Source of the DNA: Deltaproteobacteria bacterium
GTDB taxonomy: Bacteria > Desulfobacterota > Syntrophia > Syntrophales > Smithellaceae
Assembly: GCA_022703375.1 (NCBI GenBank)
Contig: JAKLDS010000001.1
Location: forward strand, 13,540-77,539
Direction of reading: 5' to 3'
DNA length: 64,000 nucleotides
Every line of letters starts with the position of its first letter. Positions within the stretch are counted from its first letter, which is position 1. The notes under the pieces were generated by a model, which worked only from the letters and a program-made list of their open reading frames with translations, searched no databases and had not been told where the DNA came from. Both the position numbers and the translations under genes were made by a program. Positions 1 through 51,558 of this stretch are shown here, piece after piece.

Positions 1-834
1 TTACAGCAGCCGGATATTAAAAAAGCGGAAGTTCTGATTGTCAAAGATGAGAATTTCAAAAAAGAAAATGTCTGTCTGGTTACCGGTGCGGCAAGCGGCA
101 TTGGCCGGGCGGTTGCTATCGCAATGGCTGCCAATGGAATTTCTGTGGCTGCCCTGGATATTGATGAGAACGGTGGCAAAGAAACAGTTACTATGGCCAA
201 GAAACTGGGTGGCAATGTCCAGTTTATCAAAACTGATTTTACTAACGATGCTCATATTGAAAACTGCGTTAAACAGTCGGCAAAAATGGGCAGTATCAAG
301 TTTCTGGCAAATATCGCCGGATTGCAGCACATTGATTCGGTGGAAAATTTCCCCATGCAAAAATATGATTTAATGCTTTCCATTATGCTTCGTGCGCCAT
401 TCTACCTCTCCAAGCTTGTTATCCCTCATATCAAGAAGAGTAAAAACGGTGTGGGTGCCATTGGCAACATGGCTTCCATTCATGCTCATATATGTACAAT
501 GAATAAACCGGTTTACAATATTACAAAATTCGGTCTGCGCGGTCTCACGCAGTCCATCGCCGCTGAAGGCGAGGGGAAAATCCGGTCTTTTTCCGTCAGC
601 ACCGGTTTCATCAAAACTCCGCTGGCGTTAAAGCAGATTCCGGCTCAGGCTGCCCAGCGCGGCATCACCGAAGAGGAAGTGGTGGTCAATGTCATGCTGG
701 GGAAATCCAGAGTTAAAGAAATGATGAATCCTGTAGAAGTGGCTAATTTGTTCGTATTTGGATTTTCCAAACATGGTAAATACCTGGTCGGCAACGATCT
801 GCTCTTCGATGGTGGTGTCGTAAAAACTTATTAA
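1..834 (+). CDS. Short-chain dehydrogenase/reductase (3-hydroxybutyrate dehydrogenase-like), 5' end outside window
   Basis: Frame 1 is open from nt 1 with no start codon before the Rossmann motif VTGAASGIGRA (nt 79-111). Catalytic YNITK (YxxxK) and a C-terminal DGG are present; stop TAA at 832-834. Confidence 0.85.
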   Translation, partial: LQQPDIKKAEVLIVKDENFKKENVCLVTGAASGIGRAVAIAMAANGISVAALDIDENGGKETVTMAKKLGGNVQFIKTDFTNDAHIENCVKQSAKMGSIKFLANIAGLQHIDSVENFPMQKYDLMLSIMLRAPFYLSKLVIPHIKKSKNGVGAIGNMASIHAHICTMNKPVYNITKFGLRGLTQSIAAEGEGKIRSFSVSTGFIKTPLALKQIPAQAAQRGITEEEVVVNVMLGKSRVKEMMNPVEVANLFVFGFSKHGKYLVGNDLLFDGGVVKTY

Positions 835-1075
835 TGAGACCCAAATTTCAGAAGCGAAGTGCACTGAAATTTGATGGTCGTAATGAATCTCAATTTTCAG
901 AAGCACCGACGAAGCGGGGCGAACTGAAAATTGTAAGCTGAATTATCCAATTCCGATGCAGAGGAATTGGGAATTATCCCCGAGGCGAAGCCTCAGCGGG
1001 ATTATTTGGGGTTTAATTCTCCGCCCCTCGGGGGGTAAATTCCTTTTGATACCCCGCTGCTTGCGGCGGGGTGGT
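832..1075 (+). repeat. Modular intergenic hairpin repeat (TAATGAGAC family), copy A
   Basis: Begins TAATGAGAC at the SDR stop codon. Units: taatgagac+ccaaatttcag/ctgaaatttg hairpin; taatgaatc+caattttcag/ctgaaaattg hairpin; then an AATTATCC terminal module (ccaattcc/ggaattgg and ccccgaggcgaagcctcagcggg hairpins). Related copies at 37835, 49349 and 50559. The 3' end is approximate. Confidence 0.8.
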
Positions 1076-2968: not shown

Positions 2969-4293
2969 GCATAACAATAATTGCCATATTAATGTTCATA
3001 GTGCTTATCGTCTGTTTCTTCCTCGGACATCCGCTGGCTTTTGTTCTGGGTGGTGTGGGCACATTATTCGGTTTGTTTTTAACGGGGCCTTCTTTTTTCC
3101 ATGCTTTTATTGACCGGATTTTTGCCGGCACCATGAGTAACTTTACGCTGGCAGCCATCGTGTTGTTTATTTTCATGGGCAATCTGCTCACTGTTTCCGG
3201 AATAGCGGACAGGTTGTTTGCGTCTCTTCGTTATCTTTTAGGTTCCTTGCGCGGCGGATTGGGCCTCGCGGTGCTGTTTGTCAGTATCATTTTTGCGGCC
3301 TGTACGGGAATTGTCGGCGCTTCGGTTGTTACAATGGGCCTTCTGGCGGGCCCGATGCTGCTGCGCTATGGCTATCAAAAAGAACTATCCATGGGCATAA
3401 TCACCGCAGGTGGTACCGTCGGGCTTATGATACCGCCCAGCATTATGCTGGTTATCATGGGCGATCAGGCCAATGTCGCTGTCGGCAAGCTTTTTGCCGC
3501 GGTTATCATTCCCGGATTGGCCATGAGCTTAGCCTATATGCTTTACGTGGCAATACGCTGCACAATCAATCCTAAAGTCGGGCCGCCGATTCCCGCCGAG
3601 CAGTTAGCCAAGGTTTCCTTCGGCCGCCGGGTTTTTACCGCCATTATTTATGCTTTGCCGCCGATATGTTTAATTTTGTTTGTTTTGTTTTCTATTTTTC
3701 TGGGTTACTTTACACCGGCGGAAGCTGCGGGCATCGGCTCTTTTCTCGCCATAATTTTGGTTCTGGTTTATCGCCGTTTTACCTGGGCGGGATTCCTGAC
3801 CACCATCTATCAAACGGCCAAGGCCAGTGCGATGGTTTTAATGATAATTGTCGGAGCATCCTGTTTTACCAGCGTTTTTATCGGAATGGGTGGTGGAACT
3901 GCCCTGGTGGAAGCTGTAATGGCTACAGGACTGGGTAAATGGGGTATTTACACTCTGATGATGATTATTCTACTGATTATGGGATGTTTTATTGACTGGG
4001 TCGGACTTGTGCTGATTGCCTTCCCCGTATTCCTGCCGATAGCCAAATTGCTGGGGTTCGACATGCTCTGGTATGTTACGATGATGGCGATGGTGCTGCA
4101 GATTGCTTTTCTGACTCCTCCCTTCGGTTATGCATTGTTTTATATGGCGGGATTGAAATTCGAAGGAGTCACCTTCCCGCATCTTTATCGGGGAGTGCTG
4201 CCTTTCGTTATCATGCAGGTTATCGGCTTCGTAATTCTTACTATTTATCCGGAGATAGTTTTATGGCTGCCTTCCATTATGTTTGATAAATAG
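2965..4293 (+). CDS. dctM: TRAP transporter large permease (DctM family)
   Basis: ATG at 2965 is preceded by aaggagg (2951-2957). The product is a polytopic membrane protein of about 442 aa. The ORF-track start at 2818 would overlap dctQ by 150 nt and is unlikely. Confidence 0.85.
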   Translation: MSITIIAILMFIVLIVCFFLGHPLAFVLGGVGTLFGLFLTGPSFFHAFIDRIFAGTMSNFTLAAIVLFIFMGNLLTVSGIADRLFASLRYLLGSLRGGLGLAVLFVSIIFAACTGIVGASVVTMGLLAGPMLLRYGYQKELSMGIITAGGTVGLMIPPSIMLVIMGDQANVAVGKLFAAVIIPGLAMSLAYMLYVAIRCTINPKVGPPIPAEQLAKVSFGRRVFTAIIYALPPICLILFVLFSIFLGYFTPAEAAGIGSFLAIILVLVYRRFTWAGFLTTIYQTAKASAMVLMIIVGASCFTSVFIGMGGGTALVEAVMATGLGKWGIYTLMMIILLIMGCFIDWVGLVLIAFPVFLPIAKLLGFDMLWYVTMMAMVLQIAFLTPPFGYALFYMAGLKFEGVTFPHLYRGVLPFVIMQVIGFVILTIYPEIVLWLPSIMFDK

Positions 4294-5325: not shown

Positions 5326-7092
5326 TTAGATTGTAGCGACCGTCAGACCTCTATTTTTTAAGGGAAAAAACAGGGATACTTCAGTTCCGCGTCCCAGGTG
5401 GCTGGTTATTTCCATTTTTCCTGCGTGGGCAATCATCAGGTGTTTCACTATTGACAATCCCAACCCGGTGCCGCCCAGTTCCCGCGAACGATTTTTGTCC
5501 ACGCGATAAAAACGTTCGCCCAGCCGTTCAATTTCTTCCGGCGGAATCCCAATTCCCGTATCGCTGACGGTTACGGCGACAAAGTTACCCGCTATTTCCG
5601 CGCCGACGGTTACTTTGCCGTTTTCTGGAGTGAATTTTACCGCATTATCCAGAATGTTGACGAATATCTGTGACAGTCTGTCTTTATCCGCCCGGATAGG
5701 GGGCAATATCTCCGCCACCAGATTAACGATTTCGATATTTTTCATTTTTGCTTTCGTTGCAACCAGCGGCAGAATATTGTTTACGGCATCAGCTAAACAG
5801 CATTCTTCCCAGTGAAAATTTGTTTCTCCCAGTTCAATTTTTGATATTGTCAGTAAATCCTCCACCAGACGGTTTAACCGCTCTGCATGCTGCAATATTA
5901 TATCAATAAATTTTCGTGTCTCTTCGGTGTTGGCGAGCGCGCCGTCCCGGATTGTTTCCAGATAGCCCAGGATTGCCGTGAGCGGTGTTCTGATTTCGTG
6001 GGTGACATTAGCGACAAAGTCAATTTTGATGCGTTCCAGTCTTTTCAACCGGGTGATGTCATGAAATACAACCATGGTCTTTTTATTTTCCTCATTGCCC
6101 TGAATTCCGGAAATGCTGATTTTTAAAATTACATGCTGCAGATTGCCCAGCGTGATTTCGCCATAGACCGGCTGACATGTTTCTTTAAACTTCAGGAAGG
6201 CCTTCTGCAGCTCCACGCTGCGAAAAGCCTCCAGCAAAGTTTTACCGATAACTTCTCCGTATTGTGCCGTTAGTATATTGCTCATTGCCGGATTGACAAC
6301 TTCAATCCTGTCGGTTTCATCCAGAATTATGACTCCTTCATTCATGCTGCCGAAAGCCGTCATCAGTTTACTGCTTTCTTCATTGGCCAGACGAATTTTG
6401 GTTTCCAGTTCGGCGACCAGATAATTAATATTGTCCGCCAGTTTCTTAGTTTCATCGGAAGTTTTAATAAAGACAGCCCCTGCAGCCTGTCCCTGCCGCA
6501 GTTTCTCCGTAAATCTTTCCATCGCCTTGATGGGCAGCGCCAGCCGGTAGGCAAAGATAATCGCAATTATTAACGAGCAGACGGCAACCAGGAACAGCGC
6601 CAGGAAGAATGAATTGTAGACTTTTTCAATAGTGTTACGGACATCGAAAAGCGGACGCGCCAGCCTGACGTACCCGGTTATCCTGGAGCCGGACTTTATT
6701 GGTACGGCAACATAGAGCATATCCACGCCGATTGTTGCGCTGTAGCGGATGGCATTGCCCTTTCCTTTGAGCCTCGCTTCCTGTATTTCGGGACGGTTTA
6801 AATGATTTTCCAAAACAGTGATTGCTTTTTCGGAATCGGCAAAAACCTTTCCCAGTGCATCAACAAGAGTTACCCGGGCGCCTGATATGCCGGCGATTTG
6901 TTTCAGCTGCTGAGAGATATTTTCTGCAGAGCTTAAATCCAGCAACTGGGCATACGTCATTAATTGATTCTCAATCTGCCCGGTCATAATATTCTTTATT
7001 TCATCCCGGGCGAACAGATTCAAAATAATGAAAGAAAGCGCAACTATCGCGAGATAAGTGCCGAATATTTTGAAAAAAAGGCTTCGTTTCAT
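5326..7092 (-). CDS. phoR: Phosphate regulon sensor histidine kinase (PhoR-like; TM-HAMP-PAS-HisKA-HATPase)
   Basis: H-box VTHEIRTPLT and G-box GGTGLGLSIV are present. It lies at the end of the phoB-pst-phoU cluster. Confidence 0.85.
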   Translation of the reverse strand: MKRSLFFKIFGTYLAIVALSFIILNLFARDEIKNIMTGQIENQLMTYAQLLDLSSAENISQQLKQIAGISGARVTLVDALGKVFADSEKAITVLENHLNRPEIQEARLKGKGNAIRYSATIGVDMLYVAVPIKSGSRITGYVRLARPLFDVRNTIEKVYNSFFLALFLVAVCSLIIAIIFAYRLALPIKAMERFTEKLRQGQAAGAVFIKTSDETKKLADNINYLVAELETKIRLANEESSKLMTAFGSMNEGVIILDETDRIEVVNPAMSNILTAQYGEVIGKTLLEAFRSVELQKAFLKFKETCQPVYGEITLGNLQHVILKISISGIQGNEENKKTMVVFHDITRLKRLERIKIDFVANVTHEIRTPLTAILGYLETIRDGALANTEETRKFIDIILQHAERLNRLVEDLLTISKIELGETNFHWEECCLADAVNNILPLVATKAKMKNIEIVNLVAEILPPIRADKDRLSQIFVNILDNAVKFTPENGKVTVGAEIAGNFVAVTVSDTGIGIPPEEIERLGERFYRVDKNRSRELGGTGLGLSIVKHLMIAHAGKMEITSHLGRGTEVSLFFPLKNRGLTVATI

Positions 7093-7125
7093 AAAAATCC
7101 CGTTTTAACAATGTGCAGTGCGCTA

Positions 7126-7806
7126 TCAACCACGCGGAACTTCATGCCGGACGCTCTGGCCGGTGACCATATAAATAACTATATCCGCGATACCTTTGGC
7201 ATGGTCGGAAATCCGTTCCAGATTCTTGGAAATCTGAGTGATAATCATCGCCCGATGAATGGAACGCGTGTCTTCCATCATAAATGTGAGCAACTCTCGA
7301 AATACCTGCTCATTGAGGCTATCAATTATCTCGTCATCTTTTCTTACTTTGTTGGCAAGAGCAATATCTTCGCGGATCAGTGAATCAATGCTCTCACGAA
7401 TCATTCCGCGGGCGACTTCCGCCATGTGCGGTAAATCAATGTATGGTTTTAACTGCGGCTCCGCATTGAGAATGATGATTTTTTCGGCAATATTAGACGC
7501 CATGTCCCCGATTCTTTCCAGATGGCCGTTAATTTTAACTGCCGTTGTAATAAACCGCAAATCCCTGGCCGCAGGTTGCCTCAGGGCCAGCAGACGAATG
7601 CATGTCTCTTCAATTTCGATGTCCAGAGAGTCAATCTGGTCGTCTTCTTCAATCACCATTCTGGCCAGCTGGGAATCTCTTTTCAACAGAGCTTCAATAT
7701 CTTTGGCAATTGCTTTTTCCGCCAGTGCAGCCATATAAATAAGACTTTCCTTGATTTTCCGCAATTCTTTTTCATACTGAATGCTGGTGTGCTGCTTTTC
7801 TTCCAT
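7126..7806 (-). CDS. phoU: Phosphate signalling complex protein PhoU
   Basis: 226 aa from the ATG at 7806, preceded by caggagg. Two PhoU repeats are present (ERIGDMASNIAE / ERISDHAKGIAD). Confidence 0.9.
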   Translation of the reverse strand: MEEKQHTSIQYEKELRKIKESLIYMAALAEKAIAKDIEALLKRDSQLARMVIEEDDQIDSLDIEIEETCIRLLALRQPAARDLRFITTAVKINGHLERIGDMASNIAEKIIILNAEPQLKPYIDLPHMAEVARGMIRESIDSLIREDIALANKVRKDDEIIDSLNEQVFRELLTFMMEDTRSIHRAMIITQISKNLERISDHAKGIADIVIYMVTGQSVRHEVPRG

Positions 7807-37258: not shown

Positions 37259-37837
37259 ATGGCAAAATCAATTAAAGGAACAAAAACGGAAAAAAATCTA
37301 CTGGCGGCTTTTGCCGGCGAAGCGCAGGCGAGAAACCGTTATACCTACTTTTCCAGTGCGGCAAAAAAAGAAGGTTTTGAGCAGATTTCCCATATCTTTT
37401 TAGAAACTGCCGAAAACGAAAAAGAACATGCCAAGGTGTTTTTTAAGCATCTGGAAGGCGGTGAAGTCGAAATAACCGCGGCGTATCCGGCAGGCATCAT
37501 TGGTGATACCAAGACAAATCTGGAAGCGGCGGCCGCCGGCGAAAACATGGAATGGACAACCCTTTATGCCGACTTCGCCAAAGTAGCCAAAGAAGAAGGT
37601 TTCCCGGAAGTGGCGCGTTCCTTTGAACAGATTGCCAAGGTGGAGAAATTTCATGAAGGCCGTTACCGGAAACTGGTTGCGAATATAGTTAATAAAGAGG
37701 TGTTTAAAAAGAAAACAACAACCAAATGGCACTGTATTAACTGCGGCTATATTTTCGAAGGCGAGGAAGCTCCCAATGAATGTCCTGCCTGCAAACATCC
37801 GCAATCATATTATGAAGTCCTGGCGGAAAACTTTTAA
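37259..37837 (+). CDS. rbr: Rubrerythrin
   Basis: Di-iron ferritin-like domain ([30 protein letters not shown]) plus a C-terminal rubredoxin CINCGY...CPACKHP. Confidence 0.95.
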
Positions 37838-37950
37838 TGAGACTAAGCCTTTTGCGCAGCAAAAGGCTTAGTCGAATTGTCCCGAGGAGCGTAGCGAATA
37901 ATCTAAAGGTCAAACGATGTCACACGTCGGGGTTAATGACACCCTAATTA
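37835..37950 (+). repeat. Modular intergenic hairpin repeat (TAATGAGAC family), copy B
   Basis: TAATGAGAC starts at the rubrerythrin stop codon. A perfect 13-bp hairpin gactaagcctttt-gcgcagc-aaaaggcttagtc follows, then an AATTGTCCCGAGGAGCGTAGCG module. The 3' end is approximate. Confidence 0.7.
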
Positions 37951-37963
37951 ATCTGCCTCTGGC

Positions 37964-38005
37964 AAAAAAAAGAAAAAGCGCAATTTCTGCAAATTGCGCT
38001 TTTTA
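37964..38005. terminator. Bidirectional Rho-independent terminator
   Basis: Stem agcgcaattt/aaattgcgct is flanked by an A-run on one side and a T-run on the other. It can serve rubrerythrin (+) and tRNA-Leu (-). Confidence 0.7.
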
Positions 38006-38015
38006 CTTTATTAAA

Positions 38016-38102
38016 TGGTGCCGAAGCCGGGATTTGAACCCGGACAGGCGTACACCCACTAGACCCTGAACCTAGCGCGTCTACCAATTCCGCCACTTCG
38101 GC
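38016..38102 (-). tRNA. tRNA-Leu (anticodon CAG)
   Basis: The reverse complement reads GCCGAAGTGGCGGAATTGGTAGACGCGCTAGGTTCAGGGTCTAG...GGGTTCAAATCCCGGCTTCGGCACCA. It has a long variable arm, anticodon loop TTCAGGG and an encoded CCA. Confidence 0.9.
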
Positions 38103-38211
38103 ACGCGAAGGGGTAACTATAACGATCGCGGCTTCTTGTCAAGAAAAATGAGCTTGAATTTAAGCACCAAAATGCTATGTTACCGCCCGGTTATTGACAG
38201 GGAATTAAAAT

Positions 38212-47293: not shown

Positions 47294-47411
47294 AGACGCG
47301 ATCACTTGCTTTTCACCTCAACTTCAAATGAAGGTCAATGATTTACCCCCTTAGACGCGATCACTTGCTTTTCACCTCAACTTCAAATGAAGGTCAATGA
47401 TTTACCCCCTT
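47294..47411. repeat. Perfect 2 x 59-bp tandem duplication
   Basis: agacgcgatcacttgcttttcacctcaacttcaaatgaaggtcaatgatttaccccctt occurs at 47294-47352 and again, identical, at 47353-47411. Confidence 0.95.
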
Positions 47412-47512: not shown

Positions 47513-48181
47513 ATGGACAGCAAACTTTTTTCCCCCATCATAATATTGCTCTTGTCTTTTTGCTTGAGCGCTTGCTCGCCCGGCATCAGGCCGGCCTATG
47601 TCGTGCCGGAGAAAAATAAGGATGCGCCAGCAACAAAAGCAGCAGCATCGCCCGGTGAGAATCCGGAGACGGGTGAAAGTGAAAAGCCGGATACCCTTAA
47701 ATCGCGTTTGCTGAACATCAGTATTCGGACACGCTTCTCCAGCACTGATGTGATAGGCAAAGTGGCGGCCGAGGAATTCTGGGAACACTCTGCGGCGGCA
47801 AACTTCCGGCTGCCCTGGGAGCGGTATTCTCAGTCAGGCTGGGGAGTGGGCACAAGACTGATGGCCAGCGCCGGCGTCCTTTACGGTTCCGGGGATACCG
47901 CACTGGTTGTTTCTCTCATTCCGTTGATTGCTTTCGGCAGTAAAGATGGCCGCTTCTCGGTTGATCTGGGAGCCGGCGGGGCACTGCTGAGCCGGCAGCG
48001 CTTTGGGATACAAGACTATGGAGGATTGTTCCAGTTTGCCCTGACCGCCGGCGCCAGTGTTCCAATTTATAAAACAATCGGGCTTGGCTACCGTTTTATG
48101 CACTATTCTGATGCCGCAATCTACGGGCCTCATAATACGGGGGTGGATTTTCACATGCTGGAGCTCATCTACCGATTTTGA
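47513..48181 (+). CDS. Outer-membrane acyloxyacyl hydrolase / lipid A deacylase (PagL)-like lipoprotein
   Basis: Lipoprotein signal LSAC, beta-barrel-like alternating pattern, HYSDA (HxS) motif near the C-terminus, and a terminal aromatic YRF. The family call is tentative. Confidence 0.5.
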   Translation: MDSKLFSPIIILLLSFCLSACSPGIRPAYVVPEKNKDAPATKAAASPGENPETGESEKPDTLKSRLLNISIRTRFSSTDVIGKVAAEEFWEHSAAANFRLPWERYSQSGWGVGTRLMASAGVLYGSGDTALVVSLIPLIAFGSKDGRFSVDLGAGGALLSRQRFGIQDYGGLFQFALTAGASVPIYKTIGLGYRFMHYSDAAIYGPHNTGVDFHMLELIYRF

Positions 48182-49095: not shown

Positions 49096-49299
49096 TTTCC
49101 CGGGGTGCCGGTATAAGTCCGGTTTCAAATCGAAGATGATATCGAGGCGGCAAGAAGGAGGCGACGAGGCGTATTTATGTATACGTTGAGGAAGCCGACT
49201 ACGAAGCCAACAAAGATAGCGCTTTGATTTGAAATTGGCGGCGGCTGAGATCATACCCTTTGTACCTGACCCGGACAATGCCGGCGTAGGGATTGGAAA
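49096..49299 (+). promoter_or_regulatory. TPP (THI-box) riboswitch with a large inserted hairpin
   Basis: Conserved cores GGGGTGCC (49102-49109), CTGAGA (49245-49250) and ACCCTTTGTACCTGACCCGGACAATGCCGGCGTAGGGA (49255-49292). P1 pairs tttcc with ggaaa. A 112-nt hairpin (tttcaaatc...gatttgaaa, 49123-49234) lies between the first two cores. Confidence 0.85.
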
Positions 49300-49315
49300 A
49301 GCTTCGCATCATTTC

Positions 49316-49349
49316 GCCATATCCTTACGAGAGAAGGATATGGCTTTTT
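49316..49349 (+). terminator. Riboswitch expression-platform terminator
   Basis: 11-bp stem gccatatcctt/aaggatatggc with loop acgagag, followed by ttttt. Confidence 0.8.
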
Positions 49350-49525
49350 AATGAGACTCGAATTGTGCGAGCGCAGCGTAGCAGAATTCGTAATTCGTAA
49401 TGAGACTTCAATTTCAAAAACGCAGCGCATAACCTAAAGTTCACACGTTGAAATTGGTAAGCCGAATTATCCCGCAGTAATGCGGGGAACTATCCCCGGA
49501 GCGAAGCGGAGCGGGGGTAGTTATA
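49349..49525 (+). repeat. Modular intergenic hairpin repeat (TAATGAGAC family), copy C
   Basis: Two TAATGAGAC units (49349, 49398), each followed by a hairpin (cgaattgtgc.../...gcagaattcg; caatttcaa.../...ttgaaattg), then an AATTATCCC terminal module with ccccggagcgaagcggagcgggg. The 3' end is approximate. Confidence 0.8.
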
Positions 49526-49889: not shown

Positions 49890-50561
49890 ATGGCAAAACA
49901 AATAATTATCATCAGCGGGGGCAGGTTAGGAGAGGCCGCTTTTTATCAAAAGCGTCTGGCCGGGATGCTGAATTTTCTTGTTGTCTGCTGCGACGGCGGC
50001 GTTCGCCATTTGGATAAGCTCAACATTAAACCGGACGTGATTATCGGCGATATGGATTCTGTCAGCCGCGTTGAACTGGAAAAAAGAGAGGAGGCGGGAG
50101 CCCAGATAAAGCGCTATCCGCGGGAGAAGGACGCCAGCGACACGCAGCTGGCTCTGGCTTACGCTCTATCTTTAAAGCCCGACGCCATGGAAATCTGGGG
50201 GGCGCTGGGCGGGAGAATTGATCATGCTCTGGCGAATGTATTTTTGCTGGATTGGGCGGATAAAAAGGGTGCGACGGCTAAATTAATTGATGAATACTGC
50301 GAAGTATTTCTGGTGAAAAAAGAAGCCGTTTTCCATAATGCGGAGGGGCAGACTGTTTCGATTTTTGCTCTCGATGAAAAAGCCGCAGGAGTATCGCTCA
50401 GCGGTTTTCAGTATCATCTTGATAATGAAACTCTGGCGGCTGACAGTTCTCATGGCATCAGTAACTTTATTATTGACTCTCCCGCGACGATAACAGTTCA
50501 GGCAGGCAAACTGCTCGTAATTCATTACTGGCAGCAGGATATTTTTCCGGAGGCGGATTAA
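49890..50561 (+). CDS. thiN: Thiamine pyrophosphokinase
   Basis: 223 aa with motifs GDMDS, KDASDTQLAL and GGRIDHALAN. Confidence 0.85.
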   Translation: MAKQIIIISGGRLGEAAFYQKRLAGMLNFLVVCCDGGVRHLDKLNIKPDVIIGDMDSVSRVELEKREEAGAQIKRYPREKDASDTQLALAYALSLKPDAMEIWGALGGRIDHALANVFLLDWADKKGATAKLIDEYCEVFLVKKEAVFHNAEGQTVSIFALDEKAAGVSLSGFQYHLDNETLAADSSHGISNFIIDSPATITVQAGKLLVIHYWQQDIFPEAD

Positions 50562-50728
50562 TGAGACTCGAATTACGCAAGTATAGCGAAGCGGAATTCG
50601 TAAGTCGTAATGAGTCCCAGATTTCAGAAACGTAGTGCGCTGAAATCTGCAGGACGAATTATCCAATTCCGATGTATCGGAATTGGGAATTATCCCCGAG
50701 GCGAAGCCGAGTGGGATTAATTTTGGGT
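50559..50728 (+). repeat. Modular intergenic hairpin repeat (TAATGAGAC family), copy D
   Basis: TAATGAGAC at the thiN stop codon, then the hairpin cgaattacgc...gcggaattcg. A second unit taatgagtc carries cagatttcag/ctgaaatctg. The AATTATCC terminal module is nearly identical to copy A (ccaattccgatgtatcggaattgggaattatccccgaggcgaagcc). Confidence 0.85.
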
Positions 50729-50751
50729 GTATATTATGAGTTCAGATTATT

Positions 50752-51558
50752 ATGACGCTTGTTAAAGTTTTATGCATCGGCGGTTCGGATACCAGCGGCG
50801 GCGCGGGGATTCAGGCGGATTTAAAAGCAGTTAACGCCTGCGGCGCCTGGGGAATGAGCGTGATTACGGCGGTAACGGCGCAAAACACCAAAGGAGTGCA
50901 GGGTGTCTTTGCCGTTTCCGCCGAATTTGTCGGGAAACAAATAGATGCTATCATGAGCGACATTGGCGCAGATGCGGTCAAAACAGGCATGCTGCTCAAT
51001 GCCGATATTGTGGCGATGGTTGCCGATAAGATTAAGCAGTACGGCATGGAAAAATTGATTGTTGACCCAGTGATAGTGGCCAAAGGCGGCAGATATTTAT
51101 TGCAGACCAAAGCAAGGCAAACGCTGGTGAAAAAGTTATTACCGCTGGCTTTGCTTGTGACGCCCAATATCCCGGAAGCCGAAATCCTGGCCGTAATGGA
51201 GATAAAAACAATCGCTGCGATGAAGAAGGCGGCGAAAGTAATTCAGGACTGCGGCGCAAAAAATGTTTTAATTAAAGGCGGCCATCTGCCGCTCAAAAAA
51301 GAGGCAATTGATATTCTCTATGACGGCCGGGAATTTTATGAATTTTATGCGCCAAGAATAAATACGCCGCATACCCACGGTACCGGTTGCACCTATGCTT
51401 CGGCAATAGCAGCACGCCTCGCCCGCGGGGAAGAAATCGCGGAAGCAGTATTTGCGGCCAAAGAACTGGTCACAGCAGCAATTAAAAATTCCGTCCAACT
51501 GGGAACAGGGCATGGCTCGGTTAATATATTAGGGGATTTAATAAAAAGTAAGAGGTAA
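50752..51558 (+). CDS. thiD: Hydroxymethylpyrimidine/phosphomethylpyrimidine kinase
   Basis: N-terminal IGGSDTSGGAGIQADLKA and C-terminal HGTGCTYASAIAA. Confidence 0.95.
   Translation: MTLVKVLCIGGSDTSGGAGIQADLKAVNACGAWGMSVITAVTAQNTKGVQGVFAVSAEFVGKQIDAIMSDIGADAVKTGMLLNADIVAMVADKIKQYGMEKLIVDPVIVAKGGRYLLQTKARQTLVKKLLPLALLVTPNIPEAEILAVMEIKTIAAMKKAAKVIQDCGAKNVLIKGGHLPLKKEAIDILYDGREFYEFYAPRINTPHTHGTGCTYASAIAARLARGEEIAEAVFAAKELVTAAIKNSVQLGTGHGSVNILGDLIKSKR

Follow-up and report, generated by a model that had tools for sequence, protein, structure and literature searches.

GTAG-tagged repetitive extragenic palindromic elements (REPs) and their arrays (BIMEs) are thought to be mobilised by RAYT/TnpA-REP tyrosine transposases. 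Smithella, the organism with which we are concerned here, is an uncultured syntroph that is important in methanogenic alkane and propionate degradation. GTAG- and CGTC-tagged REPs were described by Di Nocera and colleagues (PMC3733652), and the termini of GTAG REPs were reported in 2013 to provide neighbouring ORFs with their TAG stop (PMC3733652). A REP of Pseudomonas fluorescens listed by Nunvar and colleagues starts TGTAGTGAGC (PMC2817692).

Here we analyse arrays of a hairpin repeat in a 64-kb stretch of DNA (64,000 nucleotides; hereafter the window) and in related loci, which are denoted by L numbers. In both, the 5' end of the array frequently coincides with the stop codon of the upstream gene. 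This overlap is not in itself new, having been noted for GTAG REPs in 2013. The repeats form an undescribed REP-like family of Smithella and related Syntrophaceae, arguably with a variant architecture; a full-text literature search returned no paper mentioning both Smithella and repetitive extragenic palindromic elements.

Results

Three of four array heads in the window lie on stop codons

We found the exact motif TTAATGAGAC at four sites in the window (831, 37834, 49348 and 50558), all on the + strand and all at the heads of 110-240-nt arrays that are clearly homologous. Taken simply as a 10-mer and allowing one mismatch, the motif has 6 matches against 3.8 expected, which is no excess over chance. 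Despite this, a chance origin of the motif is ruled out by the homology of the arrays and by the large phase excess described below. The features of the four arrays (A to D) and of their surroundings are as follows:

832..837, + strand: tag TAATGA of array A; 832-834 is the SDR stop and 835-837 the second in-frame stop
832..880, + strand: array A, type-1 unit 1 (49 nt), with the tag, a stem GACC.../...GGTC and a GCGAAG-type apical loop
881..939, + strand: array A, type-1 unit 2, with tag TAATGAATC and an enlarged loop
940..1012, + strand: array A, two type-2 units, each GAATTATCC plus a short hairpin, with a GCGAAGC loop in the second
1013..1075, + strand: array A, optional 3' module of two further hairpins; the 3' limit is approximate
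37835..37840, + strand: tag TAATGA of array B; 37835-37837 is the rubrerythrin stop
37835..37873, + strand: array B, sole type-1 unit, with a perfect 15-bp stem GACTAAGCCTTTTGC / GCAAAAGGCTTAGTC
37874..37945, + strand: array B, degenerate type-2 part, GAATTGTCC..., with a terminal tag-like TTAATGACAC at 37933-37942
37973..38004, unstranded: native bidirectional terminator-like hairpin between rubrerythrin and tRNA-Leu
49177..49309, + strand: TPP riboswitch aptamer, a sub-threshold Rfam match, upstream of the thiN-thiD-thiC operon
49316..49349, + strand: terminator-like hairpin (49316-49344) and T-run (TTTTT) behind the TPP-riboswitch match
49349..49522, + strand: array C; type-1 units at 49349-49397 and 49398-49463, type-2 units from 49464 and from 49487
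50559..50564, + strand: tag TAATGA of array D; 50559-50561 is the TPK stop
50559..50751, + strand: array D, in the thiN-thiD gap; type-1 units at 50559-50607 and 50608-50655, type-2 units from 50656 and from 50687

At three of the four sites, the TAA of the motif is the stop codon of an ORF, namely a 3-hydroxybutyrate-dehydrogenase-like SDR (124..834), rubrerythrin (37259..37837) and thiamine pyrophosphokinase (TPK, thiN; 49890..50561). The initial annotation, which was made from the sequence of the window, had claimed that the element head provides the in-frame stop in all three gene-adjacent copies, and the ORF ends at 834, 37837 and 50561 bear this out. In each of the three ORFs the next codon is TGA, a second in-frame stop, so that the tandem stops it described are also present. 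The C-termini of the three proteins are those usual for their families: each of the 28 TPK orthologues that we read terminates ...FP(E/G/K)(A/E)(V/L/D/I) at the same position, and TPK is 223 aa long in most of the 120 matches listed; rubrerythrin is 192 aa long in about 110 of the best 120 homologues and 193-195 aa in the others; and the SDR alignment extends to 1-5 residues from where solved homologues end. An exact match to the TPK protein lies on a JGI metagenome contig, and the identical rubrerythrin carries the NCBI label Smithellaceae. The fourth copy (array C) was said to start directly on the T-run of a riboswitch terminator. We found that it adjoins the T-run of the terminator-like hairpin at 49316-49344, and the final T of this run (49349) is base 1 of the array C tag; the TPP-riboswitch match upstream scores 42 bits against an Rfam gathering score of 54.3 (E = 8e-5). 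The copies in the window thus abut coding or transcript ends with single-nucleotide precision, as had been stated. Many TAATGA sites in the window have no array, for example the stop at 2351, and any targeting must therefore be far from saturating.

Three of the arrays lie inside transcription units: array B before a native terminator, array C in the riboswitch leader and array D in the thiN-thiD gap. Array B is sandwiched between the rubrerythrin stop codon and the terminator-like hairpin at 37973..38004, and its terminal tag TTAATGACAC also closes arrays in L005, L018 and L126. The 3' stretch of array D ends ...TTCAGATTATT, immediately 5' of the thiD ATG at 50752. The optional 3' module of array A is present also in L010, L011 and L020.

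Arrays are built from direct hairpin units with an invariant tag

Each array consists of direct, head-to-tail units in one orientation throughout with a period fixed at 48/49 nt, and among 200 distinct tag-to-tag intervals in the related loci, 132 are 48 or 49 nt long. A type-1 unit comprises, in order, an invariant single-stranded tag TA(A/G)TGA, a ~14-bp stem and an apical C-GNA-G mini-loop, which is the chief loop type. The sequence of the stem is free and its pairing is preserved; RNAalifold predicted 13 pairs from 45 equal-length units, and 12 of these 13 carry compensatory changes. The last three bases of the head (GAC/GCC/CAC/GTC/GGC) pair with the 3' foot and are among the covarying pairs, and the first stem begins 3 nt after the stop codon. 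Type-2 units follow the type-1 units and have GAAYTATCC plus a short hairpin, frequently with a GCGAAGC loop; some arrays carry a further 3' module. The internal linkers between units read (C)G-TA(A/G)-TGA-G, and many arrays terminate in a tag-like TTAATGACAC or TAGTGACAC that no hairpin follows. The two termini of an array are not inverted copies of each other (5' TARTGAGAC... as compared to 3' ...CCCGTGR or ...TAATGACAC).

When we compared the window copies with shuffles, folding z-scores were –2.9 to –5.5. The better-folding strand is the tagged strand in 130 of 200 units and the complement in 68. Rfam 15 gave no family match over the arrays, whether gathering thresholds or an E-value limit of 0.1 were applied, and a known structured RNA family was ruled out on this ground.

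Array heads are often in phase with upstream stop codons across related loci

To extend the survey beyond the window, we retrieved further copies by two scans. A genome collection scanned with a 3' pattern yielded 18 loci, and at least 14 of them come from MAGs labelled Smithella, Syntrophaceae or Deltaproteobacteria; one match is a typical array on a contig binned as Dehalococcoidia, and one, in a Kiritimatiellia MAG, has a flank without unit motifs and looks like chance. A metagenome scan with the type-2 double unit as the pattern gave 98 additional stretches. Because both retrieval patterns sit in the 3' part of the array, the heads were not preselected. Finding heads by "TGA.NC plus any hairpin" proved too permissive, and we instead chained upstream from the 3' anchors, which yielded 85 non-redundant array heads. 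There are 200 distinct units in the ~0.9 Mb of related loci and four arrays in the 64-kb window. A co-directional ORF lies upstream of 41 of the 69 arrays that have a callable upstream neighbour, and 34 heads lie 60 nt or less from where a co-directional ORF of 100 or more codons stops.

In 18 of these 34 non-redundant arrays, the TAR of the tag is the stop of the ORF (offset 0). Offsets of +10 to +19 were found in 6 of the 34, every one in frame +1, where the head is read xxT AAT GAG ACx and the stop falls inside the first hairpin. The remaining offsets are –3 and –5 (2 of 34) and –24 to –56 (8 of 34), and none of the 34 arrays behind a co-directional ORF overlaps it in frame +2. In all, 26 of the 34 lie within 5 nt of the stop or overlap the end of the ORF. 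The 18 in-phase arrays follow at least 12 different genes (SDR, rubrerythrin, TPK, Der/EngA and others), and those behind Der/EngA are found on six contigs with the unit order shuffled. The initial annotation had proposed such a catalogue of stop phases and had set arbitrary distances and phases against its own reading; in the copies retrieved from related genomes and metagenomes, the phase is not arbitrary. A second head finder, which did not require TAR, returned 94 heads, 65 of them with TAA or TAG, and the true non-TAR heads are mainly CAA, CAG, TCA and TTG.

As a null model we took one TA-targeted insertion anywhere between the stop and 60 nt downstream, with parameters from the genes of the window. 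Offset 0 was observed in 18 of 28 cases against 13% expected (p ~5e-10), and in roughly 13 of 21 cases after orthologous sites had been collapsed by hand (p ~3e-7); under a more generous null of 0.25, the corresponding values are p = 1e-5 and 4e-4. Part of this offset-0 excess could be due to constraint on the downstream spacer instead of targeting. The precision is specific to the head, since the 3' end of the array abuts the stop of a convergent gene in only 1 of 8 cases. Between tandem genes, 18 arrays are co-oriented and 12 anti-oriented, which is a mild bias. Further arrays lie upstream of genes, next to divergently transcribed genes at their 5' ends, on the T-runs of terminators and inside a gene. 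In L012 the array lies within a wecB-like gene; in L121 it lies a few codons into thiD, and the 3' end of the array provides a new ribosome-binding site and ATG.

These positions bear on the view that selection alone has shaped the distribution, with insertion either random or in need only of a TA, and with placement on the stop alone sparing both the protein and the downstream signals (terminator, ribosome-binding site, promoter). The predominance of frame 0 over frame +1 and the lack of frame +2 are what selection on C-terminal tails would give. Arrays in both orientations to genes, copies upstream of genes, on T-runs and inside a gene, and sites in operon junctions that are too tight to tolerate much else are likewise as this view would have it. 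It is at odds, however, with an offset-0 count that exceeds the TA-site null over 60 nt (18 of 28 as compared to 13%), and with array 3' ends that fail to accumulate where convergent genes stop; two further points against it come from the empty sites.

Empty sites show native stop codons at the same position

The initial annotation had also proposed a comparison with orthologous loci that lack the element. An array occupies the thiN-thiD junction in the window (190 nt) and in L121. The junction is empty in L119, which has the closest TPK orthologue (69% identity) and a stop/start overlap gat TAATGA ttcc, in L120 (gtt TGA aa ATG) and in L122-125 (ctt TAA ttt ATG). The leader array (array C) has an orthologue in L119 and L121 and is missing in L120. 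At the rubrerythrin stop, an array is found in four places (the window, L126-128, L015 and L004). The rubrerythrin of L126-128 is 98% identical, yet the first unit differs; L004 has a TAG stop together with a unit from a TAG subfamily. In two Smithella species the rubrerythrin site is empty and reads tat TAA, about 60-100 nt and the native terminator, and one of these two species has a solo unit exactly on the terminator T-run. Native stops stand at the same position in the empty sites. The spacer of about 100 nt before the rubrerythrin terminator counts against selection acting alone, since arrays begin on the stop in four lineages even so.

A blastn search for empty sites with flanks only returned mainly other repeats and internal units. 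We instead used a colinear-HSP gap analysis among loci, and this identified two clean insertions of a whole element and two differences at the level of units. In the first whole-element case, L023 is filled and L097 is empty (GCTGTAATGAAAAGC) with flanks that are 93-94% identical; the empty site is a TAATGA overlap, in which the element of L023 is reversed. In the second, L109 is filled and L030 is empty (GTTGATTATCATT) with flanks that are 92-94% identical. These two clean recent insertions belong to one subfamily with the head TTG/TTGC rather than TAR. Their junctions have an ambiguous TT followed by A, and both insertions brought their own G(C)TGA to empty sites without a TGA on the strand of the element. 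At the unit level, L011 and L079 (flanks 97-99% identical) differ by one 69-nt unit at the array head with TAATGAGAC at both of its borders, and L074 and L034 differ by 77 nt within the array.

All five resolvable junctions read T-TA in the orientation of the element (L097, L030 and L119, with L012 and array B by inference). Two clean empty sites, L119 and L097, are both exactly TAATGA and have 6-7 bases in common with the element head. Because these bases are common to the end of the element and the target, the exact junction cannot be placed; the sequences are compatible with a duplication of 2 bp (TT or TA), with none, and with a crossover inside TAATGA. The 9-nt repeat ACCCCTAAC that flanks the array of L012 and the ~18 nt of thiD duplicated in L121 sit poorly with a fixed short target duplication, as they disagree with the TT of L023 and L109; in L012, a tandem TPN repeat may have been native, and the junction would then be at a TA. 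A TCGAATTA repeat around the second part of the L126 array was rejected as an 8-bp target duplication, being the type-2 linker sequence itself. The 6-7 shared bases also speak against selection alone, and we consider it unlikely that selection is the whole explanation. The suggestion in the initial annotation that only insertions at gene ends survive is thus correct in part: such filtering seems to contribute alongside a sequence preference, as the frame pattern indicates for the former (0 >> +1, no +2), but does not on its own explain the excess over TA sites.

The stop codon is at least partly supplied by the element

We found that the tag is equally conserved at internal linkers and at array heads. 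Its conservation is therefore not due to a need for a stop codon. The third base of TAR follows the subfamily of the unit: it is G in 13 of 13 GAC|TCTCTG units and 8 of 8 GAC|CAGTTG units, and A in 9 of 9 GAC|CCAAAT units and 9 of 9 GAC|TCAAAA units. The rubrerythrin stop is TAA at the empty sites and TAG where a TAG-subfamily unit sits. Taken together, the conservation of internal tags, the subfamily-tracking A/G and the G(C)TGA brought along by two insertions indicate that the stop is at least partly supplied by the element, with the sequence of the element laid over the native stop at the same position.

The equal conservation of internal tags also bears on whether the arrays are 3'-UTR or intercistronic RNA modules selected by the host, either as mRNA stabilisers or as modulators of termination or ribosome release, whose first hairpin must fall in the footprint of the terminating ribosome. 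The location of arrays B, C and D inside transcription units, the stem that begins 3 nt past the stop codon and the persistence of arrays at the der and rubrerythrin stops across species would all suit such a role. So would ribosome stalling at E. coli REPs; work by Liang, Rudd and Deutscher in 2015 is said to have found that REPs about 15 nt or less from a stop cause ribosome stalling and lower expression. There is no terminating ribosome at the internal linkers, however, and the orientation of arrays relative to transcription is weakly biased, some copies adjoin divergent genes at their 5' ends or lie within a gene, and the arrays have no Rfam match. The polymorphisms in presence and in unit number between near-identical strains are, moreover, typical of mobile DNA. 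We regard selection for such modules as very improbable and a purely RNA-level role as an unlikely primary cause; an effect on RNA can be a secondary consequence of the arrays.

A second reading on which these data bear is insertion of the IS200/IS605 type ("peel and paste"), which the initial annotation had offered for an element that targets TAA/TTAA at gene ends. TA(A/G) or TA(A/G)TGA would then be an external target and left cleavage site, the element would start at the stem and insert 3' of the target without duplication, and the 3' site of a unit would permit the array to grow by repeated insertion behind the tag. The exact TAATGA of the empty sites in L119 and L097 fits this scheme, as do array ends in a tag-like TTAATGACAC or TAGTGACAC with no hairpin after them, strictly direct arrays of fixed 48/49-nt period, the single-unit difference between L011 and L079 with TAATGAGAC on either side, strand-specific GNA-type loops that suit a hairpin in single-stranded DNA, and the lack of a clearly visible target duplication. 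In contrast, the empty sites of L023 and L109 lack TGA on the strand of the element and G(C)TGA was imported, the A/G of TAR tracks the unit subfamily and not the locus, the element of L023 is reversed inside TAATGA, and plenty of TAATGA sites in the window are vacant.

The enzyme that such a scheme calls for was also sought. In ~915 kb of related loci we found no RAYT or IS200-like ORF by motif search (including HUH...Y) or with E. coli RayT as the query of tblastn and phmmer, and no full-length Y1-transposase partner, with or without TnpB, that has matching ends. A search of the ~915 kb for genes flanked by inverted units likewise gave no candidate, the sole inverted pair enclosing a sigma-factor-like ORF, and no transposase of any kind could be linked to the element. 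A sample of ~915 kb is too small to exclude a single-copy RAYT or transposase gene of a 3-Mb genome, which could easily lie outside it. No Y1/HUH transposase was found in ~915 kb, and among described elements GTAG-tagged REPs come closer than IS200/IS605 insertion sequences. The data do not establish an IS200/IS605 assignment, and we think it improbable that the arrays arise in this way. What stands of the target claim in the initial annotation is the T-TA at every resolvable junction and the two TAATGA empty sites; what does not is the idea of TAA as a target outside the element, given the internal linkers, the subfamily-tracking A/G and the imported G(C)TGA.

Discussion

We read the unit anatomy and covariation, the in-phase excess, the native stop positions and the presence/absence polymorphisms observed here as those of a REP-like, non-autonomous mobile family. 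Probably, its 5' terminus overlaps a native T-TA(A/G), the stop is rebuilt and selection culls harmful placements. The 5' end would need, or strongly prefer, a match to T-TA(A/G) at the target. Where the target already reads T-TA(A/G...), the 5' terminus of the element would overlap it by 2-3 bases and occasionally by a whole TAATGA; if the target is a TAA or TAG stop, the A(A/G) of the element would complete the stop, leaving the protein unchanged and a TGA behind it. Purifying selection would cause most other placements near gene ends to be lost: frame +1 would add only 3-6 residues and may sometimes be retained, and frame +2 would lead to read-through of the entire unit. The frame pattern (0 >> +1, no +2) is a prediction of this selection on C-terminal tails. 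Arrays would then stay at a site, where units beside the tag would be gained, lost and shuffled. We infer that overlap at the junction causes the in-phase excess and that the element acts on single-stranded DNA, and our leading guess for the kind of enzyme is a RAYT or another HUH-type tyrosine transposase. Effects of the arrays on termination or mRNA stability are plausible as side effects, because arrays B, C and D form part of transcription units and have their first stem 3 nt behind a stop.

More tentatively, TA(A/G)TGA may be both the element's own end and a homing signal. An enzyme, plausibly a HUH tyrosine transposase, would add 48-nt units beside a tag-like sequence, and its preferred targets would be stops, especially TAATGA overlaps, and the tags of resident units. 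We think this possible but doubtful. If true, it would be a mobile element with genuine stop-codon specificity, and head-to-tail hairpin arrays would be built and renewed at gene ends with the frames of both neighbours intact.

The family accounts for many gene stops in Smithella that look repeat-derived, and it is relevant to gene calling, to operon and 3'-UTR prediction, and to metagenome assembly and binning in the Smithella group. Its clean features (rigid unit length, invariant tag, direct arrays and unit polymorphism) could illuminate the spread of REP-type elements, which is poorly understood.

Comparison with known systems

The T-TA junctions resemble those of miniature elements such as Correia, ERIC and RUP (IS630/Tc1-like, with TA duplication) and Tourist-type elements (TAA/TTA), and TA/TTA-targeting miniature elements are, like the Smithella arrays, small, non-coding, structured, mostly intergenic and near gene ends. 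Unlike TA-duplicating MITEs, the Smithella element is a modular direct repeat without terminal inverted repeats, and the ambiguous bases in two recent insertions of the family are TT rather than TA. With IS200/IS605 elements and PATEs it shares hairpins near the ends and no terminal inverted repeats, no clear target duplication, a short conserved sequence directly 5', and strand-specific features that suggest a single-stranded DNA substrate. In contrast to IS200/IS605 elements, no tnpA or tnpB is associated with it in ~915 kb, the conserved 5' sequence travelled with the element in two recent insertions, and a tandem multi-unit array takes the place of one left and one right end.

REPs differ from the Smithella family in several respects. 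The units are 48/49 nt long here and 20-40 nt in REPs, and the arrays are strictly direct, whereas REPs/BIMEs usually have inverted pairs or alternating orientation. The family has a second unit type (GAAYTATCC) and optional 3' modules, a conserved GNA apical mini-hairpin, and a tag TA(A/G)TGA that yields TAA as well as TAG with a second stop after it. In the known REPtron a RAYT is flanked by REPs, whereas no RAYT was found here in the ~915 kb sample. The tetranucleotide itself is GTAG in the TAG subfamilies and GTAA in the others, TGA intervenes before the stem, and array heads have flanking sequence in place of the G. Like GTAG REPs, however, the Smithella family is a hairpin palindrome repeated many times per genome (with 12 of 13 pairs compensated here), is restricted to a lineage, and occurs as many interspersed and often clustered copies, chiefly just past the 3' ends of genes and occasionally inside them. 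As in GTAG REPs and BIMEs, a short conserved single-stranded tag lies immediately 5' of the palindrome, and GTAGTGAG is common to the start of the Pseudomonas fluorescens REP and the Smithella internal linker.

Placement of arrays on terminators and within genes

In loci L129-L136 from related genomes and metagenomes, the T-run of the native rubrerythrin terminator, about 95 nt past the rubrerythrin stop, is the exact position of a solo type-1 unit (ATTGTGAGAC followed by the hairpin). Array C of the window, which lies behind the terminator-like hairpin of a riboswitch leader, and the arrays in related loci L005 and L121 are likewise placed on terminator T-runs. Taken together, these placements indicate that terminator T-runs are a second recurrent landing place.

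Arrays are also found inside genes or at their start. In locus L012, on the minus strand at about 6978-7150, a wecB-like (UDP-GlcNAc 2-epimerase) gene has an array within it; the ORF stays open in frame +2 across the entire array, and the stop is a TAA at the array 3' edge. The 9-nt sequence ACCCCTAAC flanks this array on both sides and reflects either a long duplication of the target or a tandem TPN repeat that is native. In L121, thiD carries an array a few codons in (3673-3850), with a leftover thiD start (GTGAAACCGGTTAAAGTC) upstream of the array, and a new ribosome-binding site and start codon come from the array 3' end (GAGGTCAGATTATTATG). The L121 array shares its 3' terminus, TCAGATTATTATG, with array D of the window, which lies between thiN and thiD.

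Other repeats

Separate from the hairpin arrays, we observed a second repeat family with the pattern ...TACGTTGAGGAAGCYGAC-(variable)-CAACAAARATAGCGCTTTGATTTRGAATTGG, copies of which are found at the following places:

Window, about 49140-49238
L047
L083
L089
L103, 6928-7074
L122-125, near 2852

Most copies have a ribosome-binding site and start codon directly downstream, and the equivalent place to the L103 copy is empty in L028. Directly downstream of the window copy is the TPP riboswitch that precedes thiN (49177-49309), which matches the full length of the model but scores only 42 bits, short of the 54.3 that Rfam sets as its gathering score; the matched stretch exceeds the model by about 28 nt.

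Elsewhere in the window, a 59-nt unit is present as two perfect tandem copies (47294-47411) upstream of a PagL-like ORF (47513..48181), and this pair may stem from a recent duplication or from misassembly.

Unit turnover, host range and gene order

The der/engA stop is occupied by arrays in six contigs (L028, L030, L043, L096, L103 and L105), and these arrays have units in common that vary in order and number between contigs. In L028, for example, the array opens with the TCAGGTTGCAG unit; in L103 this unit takes the third and the final position, and in L096 the final one. Thus, units shuffle or duplicate inside a resident array.

A typical array with both type-1 and type-2 units is present in L007 (CAITCX010000158.1), a contig binned as Dehalococcoidia. 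The likeliest account is mis-binning of a Syntrophaceae contig, not a spread of the repeat family into another phylum.

Immediately 3' of the rubrerythrin array, synteny breaks between the window (37946-38210) and L126 (3400-5579), a relative whose rubrerythrin is 98% identical: past the array, tRNA-Leu(CAG) and a ribF-like gene come next in the window, whereas L126 has TRAP transporter genes there. Arrays may mark rearrangement breakpoints.
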